DNA of 64,000 bases from Escherichia virus TH15: the sequence record MT446392.1; one strand, written 5' to 3'. Positions 4,791 through 36,634 of this stretch are shown here, one piece after another; the stretch's first letter is position 1, and each line of letters begins with the position of its first letter. Position numbers and translations under genes: made by a program. Below the pieces are notes generated by a model, which did no database searches, had not been told where the DNA came from, and saw only the letters and a list, made by a program, of their open reading frames with translations.

Positions 4791-5965
4791 GTACAGTTTT
4801 TAACACCAAACAAGTCGATGTTTTGGAGGAGCCGATGTTCTTCGGTTCCGGATTGGGCATCGCCCGTTATGATATCCAACGTCATAAGGTATTTGAAGAA
4901 CTTACTGAAAAATCCCTCTCATTTTTCTGGCGGCCAGAGGAAGTCAACCTGATGATGGATGGAGCCCAATTTAATAAGCTTCCTGAACATCAACAAAATA
5001 TTTTTACCAACAACCTGAAATACCAATCACTTCTGGATAGTATCCAGGGTCGTGCTCCAGCTGCAGCATTAGCCGCATTAGTTTCCGACCCAAGTCTTGA
5101 TACATGGATTCAGACCTGGACATTCAGCGAGACAATTCACTCTCGTTCTTATACGCACATAATGCGAAATCTCTATACGGACCCGGCGAAGGTATTCGAC
5201 GAAATCCTGTTAGATGATGCAATTATGAAGCGCGCAGAATCTATCGGTCATTACTATGATGATGTTCTGAATAAAACTCGTCAATGGCAAAACCAGATTG
5301 CTTTTGTTGAACTGGCCAAAGAAACTCCCGAAGCGGACGAACGTTTGGAACGAGCTATCAAACAAGAAGCTATTGCCAAACGAGCATTGATGAAGTCTCT
5401 TTATCTCTGTCTGCACGTTATTAACGCCCTGGAAGCTATTCGTTTTTATGTATCTTTTGCTTGTACTTTCAACTTCCATAAAAACATGGAAATCATGGAA
5501 GGTAATGCGAAGATAATGAAGTTCATCGCCCGTGATGAACAGCTCCACCTTAAGGGGACCCAATATATTCTTCGTCAGTTGCAGACTGGCACCGACGGTG
5601 ACGAATGGGTTAAAATTGCTCAAGAATGTGAAGCAGAAGCCGCAGCTATTTTCATGGAAGTTAATCGCCAGGAAAAAGAATGGGCCGTGCATCTGTTTAA
5701 AGATGGTGGACTCCCTGGGCTGAGCGTCGAGATTCTTAACCGGTTCATCGATTACCTGACAGTTTCTCGTATGAAGCAATGCGGTCTCCCTTGTGAAATC
5801 GTGTTAGAATCTACTAAGCACCCGATTCCATGGATTCGCGAATATCTCAATTCTGATAATGTGCAATCAGCACCACAAGAAGTTGAGTTGTCCGCTTACC
5901 TGGTAGCCCAGATTGACAATGACGTCGATGAGAATGTTCTTGCTGGTTTCCGTAAATATCTATAA
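4787..5965 (+). CDS. nrdB: ribonucleotide reductase small subunit, uninterrupted
   Basis: 392-aa ORF; diiron R2-type sequence; no intron or I-TevIII-like insert. Confidence 0.93.
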   Translation: MSTVFNTKQVDVLEEPMFFGSGLGIARYDIQRHKVFEELTEKSLSFFWRPEEVNLMMDGAQFNKLPEHQQNIFTNNLKYQSLLDSIQGRAPAAALAALVSDPSLDTWIQTWTFSETIHSRSYTHIMRNLYTDPAKVFDEILLDDAIMKRAESIGHYYDDVLNKTRQWQNQIAFVELAKETPEADERLERAIKQEAIAKRALMKSLYLCLHVINALEAIRFYVSFACTFNFHKNMEIMEGNAKIMKFIARDEQLHLKGTQYILRQLQTGTDGDEWVKIAQECEAEAAAIFMEVNRQEKEWAVHLFKDGGLPGLSVEILNRFIDYLTVSRMKQCGLPCEIVLESTKHPIPWIREYLNSDNVQSAPQEVELSAYLVAQIDNDVDENVLAGFRKYL

Positions 5966-10770: not shown

Positions 10771-10795
10771 CGCTTTAAAAATTTTATGTTATAAT
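10771..10795 (+). promoter_or_regulatory. putative middle-type promoter (GCTTTA box, 12-nt spacer, TATAAT)
   Basis: cGCTTTA at 10771-10777 and TATAAT at 10790-10795, followed by GGGTCTAGGTCC cassette. Confidence 0.4.
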
Positions 10796-13784: not shown

Positions 13785-13941
13785 AATTAGCGTTATAAAT
13801 AATAATATGGATTGGCTGCCGGACCAGTTAGTTAACCGGAGAATCCTAAACGGTGGACTACAACTGAGAGACTTGCCGAAAGGAAGTGAAATTCAGAAGA
13901 ACGTGTCCACCAAATATTCACCTCATATTGAGGCTTCTAAA

Positions 13942-14196
13942 ATGTCTTTAAACAAACAATTACAACACGCTCTTGAACTGCAACGCACTGCATGGAATAA
14001 CGGTCACGAAAACTATGGCGCATCTATTGATGTTGAAGCCGAAGCACTGGAAATTCTGCAGTATTTCAAACATCTTAACCCGGTACAAACCGACCTTCGC
14101 GCTGTACTCGAAGCTAAAGATGAATTGAAATATGCTAAGCCGCTGGCATCTGCTGCGCGTAAAGCTGTTCGACATTTTGTCGTTACTCTGAAGTAA
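13942..14196 (+). CDS. rIII: lysis inhibition accessory protein rIII
   Basis: 84 aa from ATG 13942 with GAGG RBS; T4 rIII is 82 aa; the track's N-terminal extension from 13807 has no RBS and begins at a TATAAATA box. Confidence 0.7.
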   Translation: MSLNKQLQHALELQRTAWNNGHENYGASIDVEAEALEILQYFKHLNPVQTDLRAVLEAKDELKYAKPLASAARKAVRHFVVTLK

Positions 14197-14594
14197 GTTT
14201 TAGGTGATTCGCTACCTTAAGTGCGGCTAGAAAATCGAGGAGCCGTCGAACTGTCTGATTAATGATTTGCGAATCATTATAGTTTTAAGACCCCGGCAGT
14301 TTTACGGTGTACCTCTTGAATGTTATTTTATAGCGGCAAGTGCATGCTACCCCGAGGTGATGGCCAATCGGGAGTACGCCTCAAGGCCTATATATCCATC
14401 AGTATATATCTTATCCTCGAGTAATCGGACCCGGAACCTTTAAGCTAACGGTGTGCAACAGATAAGAGCTATAAAGTATGATGGCGAGGTTTATGGTTAT
14501 CCTGCCGTTAAATATCCGAAACCTAATGTTCCCTTCGAGGGCTTGCGCAGGCAATGTCAATAAGTCCTGCATTCTATTTTAAAGAGAATTTAAT
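14197..14594. other. ORF-free intergenic region with several hairpins (candidate structured RNA or leader)
   Basis: About 400 bp with no ORF of 60 aa or more on either strand; contains an 8-bp inverted repeat TAATGATT-tgcg-AATCATTA (14258-14277) and other GC-rich short stems. Confidence 0.35.
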
Positions 14595-14756
14595 ATGGCT
14601 AAGAAAGAAGTTAAAGTTGTTGATGGCTCCTCCAAACGCGCTGGTTACAAGCGTGCGTCCAACAAGCGAATCAATCAGGTGGCTGATAAACTTCAGGCTC
14701 GTGCTCGTGCGGTATTGCGTGCCGATGCAGCTTGCTTTGGTAAGCCGAAAGCGTAA
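14595..14756 (+). CDS. small basic protein, 53 aa (MAKKEVKVVDGSSKRAGYKRASNKRINQ...)
   Basis: ATG 14595 with AAAGAGA RBS; Lys/Arg-rich; immediately followed by a strong terminator; below the ORF-track cutoff. Confidence 0.45.
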   Translation: MAKKEVKVVDGSSKRAGYKRASNKRINQVADKLQARARAVLRADAACFGKPKA

Positions 14757-14760
14757 GTTC

Positions 14761-14788
14761 AGGGACTCTTCGGAGTCCCTTTTTTTTA
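14761..14788 (+). terminator. rho-independent terminator (GGGACUCUUCGGAGUCCC + U8)
   Basis: 18-nt perfect hairpin with UUCG loop followed by eight T. Confidence 0.8.
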
Positions 14789-14872
14789 TTTTCATAAAAG
14801 AGTGTACAACAGGATTTGCCCAGTGCATAATGATTCCATACTGAGTTACACAATAAAACACTGGAGAATAAA

Positions 14873-21677: not shown

Positions 21678-21968
21678 ATGAAATCATCTTTTCGCTTTAA
21701 TGGTCAGGAACTGGTAGTTGAGAATGTTATCCCAGCTTCAGAAGAGTTTGACAGCGCAGTGGGTAATGAATTACGCCGCGTGTTTGGTGAAGATAAGAAG
21801 TTTGACCTTCGCCCTGTTGAAAACTTTGTAAATTCTGAACAAACAGAAAATATTTTTAATGGTATAGTAACTGGGCAGCTTGAATCTGAAACGCCAATTG
21901 CGATTACAGTCTTTGTTAAGAAAGAAGCTGTAATGACTGTAGCAGGTTTCATTTCATTCCGCAAATAA
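21678..21968 (+). CDS. hypothetical protein, 96 aa (alt-adjacent)
   Basis: ATG 21678 with RBS cassette ACATGAGGAAAACAAA-ATG identical to that at 11165-11183. Confidence 0.55.
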   Translation: MKSSFRFNGQELVVENVIPASEEFDSAVGNELRRVFGEDKKFDLRPVENFVNSEQTENIFNGIVTGQLESETPIAITVFVKKEAVMTVAGFISFRK

Positions 21969-29253: not shown

Positions 29254-29278
29254 TGCTTTAATTTTATGGCTGTATAAT
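29252..29278 (+). promoter_or_regulatory. MotA-type middle promoter for uvsY
   Basis: aaTGCTTTA 29252-29260, 12-nt spacer, TATAAT 29273-29278, then GGTTCTAGACCC cassette. Confidence 0.55.
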
Positions 29279-29306
29279 GGTTCTAGACCCTTACATTGGA
29301 TACATT

Positions 29307-29741
29307 ATGAAAACAGAGATTGAATATAAGTTGGAAGTATTTCAGGATGAGTTGGATGCAGATTTAAAAATTGATGGTACACAAATTCAATATGAAACAC
29401 AAAACAACGTTTTGTTGCATAGCAAATGGTTGAGATTGTATACCAACTGCAAGAAAGAAATAATGCGTCTTGAGATTCAGAAGAAAACTGCACTGAAAAA
29501 ACGACTAGACCATTATACAGGAAGGGGTGACCCAGGGGAAGAAGTATGCATGGATGTGTACGAGAAGTCAGAATTGAAAACAGTCATGGCCGCAGATTCA
29601 AGCGTGCTTAAGATTGATACTTCAATTCAATATTGGGCACTGCTCCAGGACTTCTGTAGCGCTGCATTAGATGGTGTTAAGTCGCGAAGTTTCGCACTTA
29701 AACATATGTTAGAAATAAGACAATTCGAGGCAGGTAAATGA
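29307..29741 (+). CDS. uvsY: recombination mediator UvsY
   Basis: 144 aa from ATG 29307 (track ATG 29277 lies inside the -10 box); resembles T4 UvsY (137 aa) as recalled. Confidence 0.85.
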   Translation: MKTEIEYKLEVFQDELDADLKIDGTQIQYETQNNVLLHSKWLRLYTNCKKEIMRLEIQKKTALKKRLDHYTGRGDPGEEVCMDVYEKSELKTVMAADSSVLKIDTSIQYWALLQDFCSAALDGVKSRSFALKHMLEIRQFEAGK

Positions 29742-29842
29742 TTGGTTGTCGTAAAGCAAATATTAGAAAACCATTAAAACCTTCTGAAGAGAAGATGCGT
29801 AAATTTCAACAGTTTATTAATGCCGCATTAAAGAAGCACTAA
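29738..29842 (+). CDS. small basic ORF, 34 aa (uvsY.-1 position)
   Basis: ATG overlapping uvsY stop; below track cutoff. Confidence 0.3.
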   Translation: MIGCRKANIRKPLKPSEEKMRKFQQFINAALKKH

Positions 29843-29874
29843 ATAGATATGTAAGTTTAACTGAGGAGACAATC

Positions 29875-30042
29875 ATGTCAGATAAGATTTGTGTTGTCTG
29901 TAAAACTCCAATCGATTCTGCATTGGTTGTGGATACAGACCAAGGTCCGGTGCATCCGGGCGCCTGTTATAATTATGTTCAGAGTTTGCCAGTTACGGAA
30001 AATACAGAAGAGCAACTGAACGAGACCCAACTTTTAATTTAG
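29875..30042 (+). CDS. small Cys-containing ORF, 55 aa (uvsY.-2 position)
   Basis: GAGGAG RBS; CVVC...PGAC motif suggests a mini zinc-binding fold. Confidence 0.4.
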   Translation: MSDKICVVCKTPIDSALVVDTDQGPVHPGACYNYVQSLPVTENTEEQLNETQLLI

Positions 30043-30099
30043 CTAGTGTTGTTAACCATTTTGGTTTTGCCCCTTCCTTTTTGGTTGGGGCCTTTTTAT

Positions 30100-34629: not shown

Positions 34630-35949
34630 TTAAGATGCAAATATTATAGGTATACGCCCATGATTATTATTTTTAATAACCTGAATATAGATGTCAGAAT
34701 CAACATAATCATTTAAAGACCCGGTTGGAAGCATTTTTAAAGTATACCAAAAACCTGTGGCTTTATCTATAATTTCTGCAGTTGAACCTTCTCGACACTT
34801 ATCAAAAGAAATGTTATCCCATGTTACCCATGAGCTAGTCAGGTTTAAATTATTATCTGACTTGTTTTCTAAGCCAACCGCGTCATAGTTTGTGGTTCTA
34901 CGATAAGAATATGAAGCTGGCAAAGAGTCATTAAATCTTTTGACACTGATATCAAATGTGTTTTTAGTTGTGACTTTATATTTCATAGAAATATTAGTAT
35001 CAGCTAGTTTGACCGTGGCTTCAGCATTAGGAGAAGACATTGAATTAAAGCTTAAAATAATTTCCCAATATTTCTTAGGTTCAAATGGTTTAAGCTTGTC
35101 ATATAATTCCTCTAATTGAGATTCTGTCAAGCTGCCAATATCAAGAGCAGGGCCTTGAGGGCCTTGTGCACCGTCTATACCATTTTTACCAGGGTCGCCT
35201 TTTAATCCTTGCAGGCCTTGTGGTCCTTGAGGGCCATCTGTTCCAGCAGGACCTTGGTCACCTTTATCTCCTTTATCACCCTTGTCTCCTTTTGCGCCAG
35301 CCGATGCCATTATGGCCCAATCGTCATTTGACGGCAACGGCGGAATACCGGTATGAGTCGTAAGACTAAAATAGGTAGCTCCTTGGTACGCTACGGCGTC
35401 ATTTGGTACATACTCAATAGATATATCATATTCACCTTTCCATATTAATCCTGTTGCTCCTGCGGGGCCCGGGTCGCCTTTAGGACCATCTAGACCATTT
35501 TTACCCGGGTCGCCTTTAGGACCTTGAATACCTTGAATACCTTGAGGGCCGGTAGCCCCATCAATGCCGTTAGTTCCATCAGCCCCTTTAGGACCTTGAA
35601 TACCAGGTGCACCATCCATCCCGTGTACACCTGCCAGGCCTTGGGGACCTTGTAGACCATCTATTCCAGCAGGACCTTGTGGTCCTGGGTCACCTTTTAA
35701 TCCTTGTGGGCCTTGAATGCCCTGGATACCTTGGTCGCCTTTTGGGCCTACTGCGCCATCAGAAATTCCTATAAATGTCTTTGCTTCTTCTGAAGTAGCT
35801 TTAGTTAAAAATTCTAAACTCCAATCGGTAGTTGAACTTGTCGTAATAAGGTCTTCTACTTGTTTTGTATTACCTGCCTCTGGATTTCTAATGGTTTTGC
35901 CAGAAAAGTTACCTCTACCATCATGCCCAAACAATCTTTCGTCAGCCAT
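34630..35949 (-). CDS. collagen-like repeat protein with C-terminal globular domain
   Basis: 439-aa ORF; two uninterrupted Gly-X-Y runs (33 and 16 triplets); late promoter and RBS upstream. Confidence 0.75.
35149..35298 (-). repeat. collagen Gly-X-Y coding repeat, block 2 (16 triplets incl. GDKGDKGDK)
   Basis: Same periodicity; encodes [19 protein letters not shown]... Confidence 0.8.
35449..35748 (-). repeat. collagen Gly-X-Y coding repeat, block 1 (33 triplets)
   Basis: Periodic GGN-NNN-NNN codons visible as CCNNNNNNN periodicity on + strand. Confidence 0.8.
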
Positions 35950-36508: not shown

Positions 36509-36537
36509 TTTTGCTTCAAATAAAATTGTGGTATAAT
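36509..36537 (+). promoter_or_regulatory. MotA-type middle promoter for rnlB
   Basis: tTTGCTTcA 36509-36517, 14-nt spacer, TATAAT 36532-36537, then GGTTCTAGACCC cassette. Confidence 0.5.
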
Positions 36538-36634
36538 GGTTCTAGACCCTTTGAGACTATTAATTCCTTTCAGAGAAAGAAAGTATAGTGGGTCTAATTT
36601 ATAATGATATTTATAACATCAAAAGTGAGAGAAT

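Follow-up and report, generated by a model that had tools for sequence, protein, structure and literature searches.

Covariation points to a mosaic of RNA modules between rIII and 30.9 of T4-like phages

The window analysed here is a 64,000-nucleotide (nt) stretch of Escherichia virus TH15 (MT446392.1), a T4-like phage of the genus Gaprivervirus with ~98% identity to vB_EcoM_VR26 across the locus of interest, where the + strand carries, in order, cd, 31.2, 31.1, 31, rIII, a gap, 30.9 and 30.8. The gap, which is the 3′ untranslated region of rIII, contains no open reading frame (ORF) of at least 60 amino acids (aa) on either strand between 14197 and 14553, as had been proposed by a first-pass annotation made from the letters alone; ORFs of 96 aa and 95 aa starting at 14554 and 14574 merely overlap 30.9, out of frame or on the opposite strand. 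The dense gene packing reported for the rest of the window was confirmed, with 3.1% of it uncovered by ORFs of at least 60 aa, and 14197-14553 is among its two longest ORF-free stretches. The second, 29742-30099, carries ORFs of 33 aa (29739-29842) and 55 aa (Cys-rich, 29875-30042) followed by a terminator-like hairpin, and is from these features probably coding. Since it holds plausible small genes, the rIII-30.9 gap is the largest apparently noncoding stretch in the window. Comparison between phages indicates that RNA modules folding independently of one another make up this gap as a + strand mosaic; they are gained, lost and reordered between genera.

Parts of the gap matched 994 phage records, mostly at 80-99% identity, and 178 of these cover at least 80% of it. 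Among them are T4, T2 and T6 as well as phages of Klebsiella, Enterobacter, Edwardsiella, Yersinia, Serratia and Erwinia. The mosaic was read from an alignment of 7 spacers and then of 43 unique rIII-30.9 spacers, ranging from about 120 to 437 nt, and appears as blocks with sharp boundaries. In the window these correspond to a short hairpin (M1), a long irregular hairpin (A), a complex domain (B), a pseudoknot (PK) and a set of 3′ hairpins. T4 lacks B but carries M1, A, PK and the 3′ hairpins, in a gap of 244 nt at 130,541-130,784 of NC_000866 that is unannotated in its reference genome, and RB33 has PK and the 3′ hairpins only. In L021 and L023, close relatives of the window, a different 51-nt hairpin replaces B, and phages of Klebsiella and Edwardsiella have the order PK, M1, B, hairpins. 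Where several short stems had been described, the region thus proved to be modular, with a complex 153-nt domain and a pseudoknot, and common to T4 and hundreds of phages. The suggestion of a structured RNA was strongly supported by + strand covariation in A, in B with its kissing loop, and in PK. That the locus specifies + strand RNA with several independent domains, one of them complex and held by a tertiary pairing, is well supported by sequence comparison. The coordinates of B and PK are as follows.

14325 to 14477, + strand: domain B, 153 nt, closed by stem P1 (14326-14334/14468-14476), with seven helices round a multi-way junction
14358 to 14363, + strand: P3a loop UGAUGG, 5′ half of a kissing loop, pairing with 14396-14401
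14396 to 14401, + strand: whole P4 loop CCAUCA, 3′ half of the kissing loop, pairing with 14358-14363
14417 to 14428, + strand: helix P5a of B, a hairpin of 4 base pairs (bp) with a GNRA tetraloop, GUAA here and GAAA in most relatives
14477 to 14528, + strand: PK, an H-type pseudoknot with stem S1 at 14483-14488/14501-14506 and stem S2 formed by its loop, 14490-14498/14520-14528

To score covariation in B, 23 distinct copies were aligned against the seven-helix structure, and 3′ partners slid by 1-3 columns served as controls. Standard pairs filled 94.8% of 1034 cells, compared with 27-46% in the slid controls, and 24 of 45 pairs had changed on both sides, compared with 6-10; none of 500 column shuffles matched the observed pairing. 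P1 is free in sequence but paired, reading UUUAUAGC/GCUAUAAA in the window, UAAAC/GUUUA in Klebsiella phages and CAUAUUAC/GUAGUAUG in EcS1. A single-sequence centroid fold of the window copy alone recovered the same helices. The covariance model R1 gave one match in the window (182 bits), and the most divergent copy, L117 880-1033 (IMGVR_UViG_2974786931; 106 bits with R1), brings compensatory changes to P2 and P5b, helices that are otherwise invariant. G-U pairs occupied 49 cells and A-C mismatches 7 (37 versus 0 when the outer part of P1 was excluded), an excess that identifies the folded strand as the + strand.

Scanning B for covarying columns outside the nested structure revealed a 6-bp kissing loop between P3a (YGAUGG) and the entire P4 loop (CCAUCR). 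All 138 cells of this interaction are Watson-Crick, with double changes in three of its six pairs (UA/CG; GC/AU/UA; GC/AU); the partners are CAAUGA/UCAUUG in EcS1, Cronus and L117, and CUAUGG/CCAUAG in L046. A tetraloop-receptor reading of GAUGG...CCUCAAG was abandoned because GAUGG pairs with the P4 loop. The P5a stem, UCGA/UCGG here and CCGA/UCGG, CUGA/UCAG, CCA/UGG or CAGA/UCUG in relatives, is paired in 100% of cells, with double changes at 3 of its 4 pairs. About 20 unpaired bases of B are invariant.

These features bear on the idea that conservation acts at the DNA level, with the gap serving as an origin of replication, as a signal for recombination or packaging, or as a promoter-terminator cassette that mediates shuffling. 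T4-type phages carry composite early-promoter/stem-loop DNA motifs (PeSLs) in many copies per genome, and the sharp boundaries and reordering of the gap modules resemble PeSL shuffling, both being short conserved noncoding cassettes tied to insertion, deletion and reordering (Comeau 2014, PMC4122927). However, the gap modules tolerate G-U pairs solely on the + strand, and both the GNRA tetraloop and the all-Watson-Crick kissing loop are features of RNA. Moreover, unlike PeSLs, the modules contain no early-promoter consensus, are single-copy in the window and show covariation of the RNA type, and a DNA-level element is accordingly very unlikely. PeSL cassettes have reportedly also been described by Arbiol in 2010.

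The architecture of B invites comparison with the purine riboswitches, whose aptamers are closed by a P1 stem, have arms held together by a Watson-Crick kissing loop and possess strongly conserved junction nucleotides. B likewise combines a closing P1, kissing neighbour arms and highly conserved junction bases in a conserved, covarying domain, and could be a riboswitch-like sensor in which a ligand bound at the junction would stabilise P1 and alter the folding of the pseudoknot or leader and thereby 30.9 expression. In keeping with such coupling, window-type spacers bring the 3′ strand of P1 up against the conserved UAUGAUG of PK or let the two overlap (JS10 GCUAUGAUG, L018 GCUUAUGAUG, EcS1 GUAGUAUGAUG). 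In Klebsiella-type spacers, however, P1 does not overlap PK; B stands 3′ of PK, with a different hairpin behind it. Neither a terminator nor a Shine-Dalgarno sequence adjoins P1, and no expression platform coupled to it is evident. B is also larger than the purine aptamers (153 nt, seven helices), has an extra branched arm with the GNRA hairpin, has no known ligand and matched no Rfam model, and the nature of the regulated gene hints at no ligand. We therefore consider a sensor of this type improbable.

B was present in 406 phage records, in a single copy per genome (once in the window), and was never annotated as RNA. It is confined to the rIII-30.9 locus, on the sense strand of the operon. 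Its invariant core, GCUAACGGUGUGCAACAG, gave IMG/VR and metagenome matches from T4-like contigs, plus 5 chance metagenome matches, and a probe for it was absent from 185,579 bacterial and archaeal genomes; B is therefore not host-derived. Compared with KP01, PEi26 and Cronus, the window copy is 95%, 93% and 81% identical, against 76%, 70% and 66% for the rIII coding sequence.

Such conservation beyond the neighbouring genes would suit a stable noncoding RNA acting in trans, if the modules, chiefly B, were excised or accumulated on their own. A product of this kind could act on proteins as a sponge or scaffold, serve as a decoy for a nuclease or defence system of the host, or join gp30.9 in a ribonucleoprotein. 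Also favourable to it are that B is closed and autonomous, with its own P1, kissing loop, GNRA hairpin and invariant unpaired bases, that it is found in either order relative to PK irrespective of gp30.9 sequence, and that module order is free, as independent binding sites would show. On the other hand, we found no promoter of its own and no sign of processing sites, and B is always single-copy, at one locus and in operon sense. Sites for RegB have the consensus GGAGRAYARAA in single-stranded form, with C very rare at positions 5-6 (PMC1702504). The two GGAG motifs of the gap, GGAGCCGUCGA (14239-) and GGAGUACGCCU (14371-), misfit this consensus and both sit in helices, and were rejected as RegB sites. 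A trans-acting RNA is thus a possible but, on balance, rather unlikely explanation.

PK followed one pattern in each spacer: UAUGAUG - S1 - GUUNNNNGKUAUC - S1′ - CGUWAAA - A-rich linker - S2′, with L117 deviating to CGUUAAU. In the window UAUGAUG forms the 5′ edge (ATGATG at 14478-14483), and CGUUAAA and an A-rich linker lie between the stems. The outer three pairs of S1 were paired in 100% of cells, the outermost being an invariant G-C and the next two occurring as three pair types each. S2 was paired in 78.7% of cells in register, compared with 33-51% in slid controls, and single positions show as many as five pair types; its clear compensations, spread over several lineages, include UUAGUAGUU/AACUACUAA, UUGUGAG/CUCACAA, UUCAAGGUU/AAUCUUGGG and UUGGUAGUU/AACUGCUAA. 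PK is therefore an H-type pseudoknot: covariation supports both helices, and S2 forms between the S1 loop and a strand farther 3′. It was found in all 30.9-bearing rIII-30.9 loci examined, whereas in more distant T4-like phages that retain rIII without 30.9 both the spacer and PK are missing; PK therefore travels with 30.9. A role of PK in frameshifting or read-through was ruled out by its distance from the rIII stop codon, which varies from ~8 to ~280 nt.

The remaining modules of the gap are simpler hairpins.

14203 to 14230, + strand: M1, a short hairpin with stem CGC/GCG and a conserved 9-10-nt loop, UACCUUAAGU (direct reading of 43 spacers)
14237 to 14315, + strand: module A, a 79-nt irregular hairpin with a UGCG loop, also in T4 (RNAalifold, 17 sequences)
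14528 to 14545, + strand: hairpin GUUCCC-UUCG-AGGGCUUG with conserved flanks GUW and CUUG, a single match in the window
14547 to 14570, + strand: variable hairpin GCAGG/CCUGC with a 14-nt loop, its position kept and its inserts differing in length
14571 to 14589, + strand: putative hairpin AUUCU/AGAAU over part of the 30.9 Shine-Dalgarno sequence (direct sequence reading)

Module A is built of the stems GAGG/CCUC, GCCGU/ACGGU, GAACUGUC/GGCAGUUU and UAAUGAUU/AAUCAUUA. RNAalifold predicted 25 pairs, with compensatory changes in 7 (for example GAACUGUC/GGCAGUUU to GAAUUAUC/GAUAAUUU, and UAAUGAUU/AAUCAUUA to UAUCGAUU/AAUCGAUA) and two invariant G-U pairs. Here too the strand test favoured the + strand (52 G-U versus 7 A-C cells), and the single-sequence z-score was -2.89. 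The 8-bp inverted repeat TAATGATT/AATCATTA, placed by the first-pass annotation at 14258-14277, is real and forms the tip of A around the UGCG loop, although it actually occupies 14260-14267/14272-14279, 2 nt to the right.

M1 varies in its stem, CAC/GUG in T4, UGC/GCA in KP01 and AGC/GCU in L042, and keeps the loop URCYWWAGU; its position is not constant across genera. The 14528-14545 hairpin reads CCCU/GGGG in relatives, CCUCU/GAGGG in L047 and GCCU/AGGC in Cronus, and in some phages a hairpin of this type lies directly 3′ of the rIII stop codon. At the site of the variable hairpin other phages have GGGAGC...GCUCCC, GAACUGG...CCAGUUC or GGUGGAG...CUCCAC. Several lineages place hairpins of different sequence over the 30.9 Shine-Dalgarno sequence: the T4 counterpart is AUUUUC/GAGAAU, and Klebsiella-type phages have UCUCCA/UGGAAGA across their own.

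The first-pass annotation had also considered a decayed gene. Some records do annotate ORFs of 58 aa, 34 aa or 36 aa in the gap, and the ATGATG at 14478-14483 is conserved, two points that would suit a decayed gene or small unannotated proteins. However, the internal ORFs had no family match in Pfam or PHROG, and the frames of ATG-initiated ORFs differ among T4, RB33, L032 and the window, so that the gap shows neither the conserved frame nor the family match of a protein gene or pseudogene. The conserved ATG opens ORFs of just 3-34 aa and is absent from 9 of 43 spacers; on the same evidence, together with the changing frames, a leader peptide starting at the conserved AUGAUG was ruled out. Furthermore, indels in the gap are not multiples of three (1, 2 and 7 nt within B), and substitutions compensate within helices instead of tracking codon positions. 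A decayed gene was thus rejected, frames also shifting between close relatives, and small unannotated proteins in the gap are likewise extremely unlikely. In every record examined, the T4 reference included, the spacer was unannotated or bore spurious ORF calls.

Searches for known RNA classes and signals were made in parallel. ARAGORN reported no transfer RNA or transfer-messenger RNA gene in the 64 kb. With the 4227 models of Rfam 15, nothing in the gap scored at E<=10, the whole window gave no gathering-level match, and the spacers of five other phages gave none at E<=1, the nearby matches being terminator look-alikes only. No sigma-70-type promoter or terminator was found inside the gap of the window or T4. 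Readings of GGGCUUGCG and UAUAAAGU as a MotA box or late promoter were dropped, both being poor matches and unconserved in relatives.

Downstream of the modules lie the following.

14595 to 14756, + strand: gene 30.9, encoding a 53-aa basic protein of unknown function (PHROG 1427)
14761 to 14790, + strand: intrinsic terminator with a G+C-rich 8-bp stem, a UUCG loop and a U-run, found likewise after 30.9 in T4

The Lys/Arg-rich ORF of 53 aa that had been noticed with its own ribosome-binding site is gene 30.9, with AAGAG (14582-14586) 9 nt upstream of the AUG. The strong terminator described after it was also confirmed, as a G+C-rich hairpin at 14761-14780 (8-bp stem, UUCG loop) followed by a T8 tail, and a promoter-like site is located 3′ of it. 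Apart from PHROG 1427, gp30.9 gave no informative relative in Pfam or among solved structures (PDB sequences), and its homologues are limited to T4-like enterobacterial phages (87 clusters). AlphaFold2 predicted a disordered basic N-terminus and a single helix at residues 24-47, with a mean predicted local distance difference test score of 69. Several auto-annotated phage records name gp30.9 '1,4-alpha-glucan branching enzyme, GH-13-type', a name that has reached UniRef; on a basic protein of 58-72 aa it must be an annotation artefact.

We favour, at a probability of roughly one half, the view that the spacer controls 30.9 in cis at the post-transcriptional level, PK being its putative operator and B an accessory. 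This view is preferred because of the presumed co-transcription, the linkage of PK to 30.9 and the Shine-Dalgarno hairpin. Of the regulatory leader suggested by the first-pass annotation, the anatomy fits, with co-oriented genes, neither promoter nor terminator inside the gap, co-occurrence of PK and 30.9, and a hairpin on the Shine-Dalgarno sequence; its function we infer. The spacer would be transcribed from the + strand together with the flanking genes, and the resulting RNA would be at once the 3′ untranslated region of rIII and the 5′ leader of 30.9, carrying in order M1, hairpin A, B, PK, two hairpins and the hairpin on the 30.9 ribosome-binding site. PK would be the invariant core that accompanies 30.9, and the other modules optional cassettes, added, removed or reordered by recombination. 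The 30.9 message could be controlled at translation initiation, by protection from ribonucleases, or both. PK may be bound by a protein, for which the small basic gp30.9 would be the prime candidate by analogy with T4 gene 32, which is autoregulated through the pseudoknot of its leader, and B may act as an accessory sensing or scaffolding domain.

Several observations weigh against this view. The thermodynamic stability of the whole gap is unexceptional (nonsignificant z-scores of -0.4 and -0.8 for the two strands), and the evidence for structure therefore comes from comparison rather than from folding energy. The window and T4-type sequences have a weak S2: in the window it amounts to -3.3 kcal/mol, with 5 of 9 pairs formed ungapped or 7 with a 1-nt bulge, and direct reading offers an alternative shifted pairing, AGGUUU/AAACCU, in window and T4-type sequences. 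The distance from PK to the 30.9 start varies from ~60 to ~290 nt and module order differs among genera, which is unusual for a composite expression platform and fits autonomously acting modules. In elaboration and conservation B goes far beyond what a stabiliser or operator would need, and it is present or absent alongside an identical gp30.9 (the window compared with L021 and L023), so it is untied to gp30.9 sequence. Owing to this free order and to the complexity and conservation of B, a processed or trans-acting RNA and a riboswitch-like sensor both stay alive as alternatives to the cis-acting leader. Tentatively, B might even represent a new class of functional RNA, whether ligand-sensing, catalytic or part of a gp30.9 particle that influences gene expression in the host or the phage.

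The leader of T4 gene 32 offers the closest analogy to a cis-acting PK operator, since it too has an H-type pseudoknot in a T4-family 5′ leader, upstream of the ribosome-binding site. The products encoded downstream could in both cases bind nucleic acid. They differ in kind, gp30.9 being a single-helix basic protein and only a candidate binder, whereas gp32 is an OB-fold single-stranded-DNA-binding protein; no sequence relation between the two pseudoknots has been established, and PK lies at the variable distance from its start codon given above. The gene 32 operator, like PK, is absent from Rfam, and a large viral structured-RNA screen highlights candidates upstream of gene 32 and contains nothing under T4-related terms (PMC10690425). 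We found no description of RNA elements in the rIII-30.9 spacer in the literature searched, outside of which lay Driukas and Nivinskas 2003 (Biologija), on rIII/30.9 expression, cited in PMC9409239.

Two further systems show partial likeness. Early genes of phage T7 are separated by hairpins that are processed by RNase III. Module A is likewise a long irregular intergenic hairpin with internal loops, in what would be a polycistronic phage transcript; it differs in showing no evidence of cleavage and no sequence relation to the T7 hairpins, and T4 is not known to rely on RNase III for messenger RNA processing. The lambda N/nut (boxB) antitermination system likewise brings together a small basic protein and folded RNA hairpins that precede a strong terminator, a likeness of position only; the gap has no boxA or boxB motif. 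Moreover, because a promoter-like site follows the 30.9 terminator, read-through would be unneeded here.

Were B to prove a new class of functional RNA, it and the universal pseudoknot together would give the T4 family its first described RNA system of this kind. Few viruses have been studied as thoroughly as T4 and its relatives, and phage therapy collections make wide use of them, yet the records examined leave this spacer unannotated or give it spurious ORF calls. The analysis supplies testable secondary structures for several RNA elements, one of them riboswitch-grade in complexity and better conserved than the neighbouring genes, and gives a concrete context to the orphan gene 30.9. It also indicates that leader RNA modules, besides genes, are shuffled as cassettes between T4-like genera. 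Since T4 itself carries A and PK, standard T4 genetics can probe their function directly.

Exchange of leader modules was also seen at the upstream end of rIII, whose position is as follows.

13942 to 14196, + strand: rIII, probable true start, 84 aa (alignment with rIII of T4, JS10, KP01 and PEi26, 82-84 aa)

Records of the SP18 and VR26 type start rIII at 13807 (129 aa), which adds a non-conserved N-terminus whose additional 45 codons overlap a structured leader; the alignment points instead to the ATG at 13942. The gp31-rIII spacer, 13785-13941, is a structured leader as well. It contains a late-promoter-like sequence, TATAAATA, at 13794-13801, a covarying hairpin at 13855-13912 (GGUGGAC/GUCCACC here, GGUAGUC/GACUACC in T4), and a second hairpin, CCUC(13921-13924)/GAGG(13930-13933), that covers the rIII Shine-Dalgarno sequence. 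We compared window positions 13855-13933 with the sequences upstream of 30.9 in L005, L012 and L084. A hairpin, UACAACUGAGAGA...GAAGAACGUG, that lies upstream of rIII in the window and T4 was found upstream of 30.9 in Klebsiella-type, L012-type and Erwinia phages. In the Erwinia phage Cronus a homologous Shine-Dalgarno hairpin also follows this hairpin, and the closing stems covary. The occurrence of homologous hairpins before either rIII or 30.9 implies that leader RNA modules are exchanged between genes as well as between genomes.

Repeats and hairpins were noted elsewhere in the window. At 35147-35757, eight overlapping copies of a GGN/CCN-rich repeat, with spacings that are multiples of 9 nt, look like a collagen-like Gly-X-Y region of a - strand gene. 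An exact 21-nt repeat, GTATAATGGTTCTAGACCCTT, occurs at 29272-29292 and 36531-36551, with a weaker third copy at 10789; it includes a TATAAT-like hexamer and may be a repeated promoter cassette. Finally, palindromic terminator-like hairpins, AAAAAAGGGNCC...GGNCCCUUU, flanked by A-runs and T-runs, are present at 21964, 33722, 37638 and 61082 (and at 5957 and 19496), and may be bidirectional terminators.

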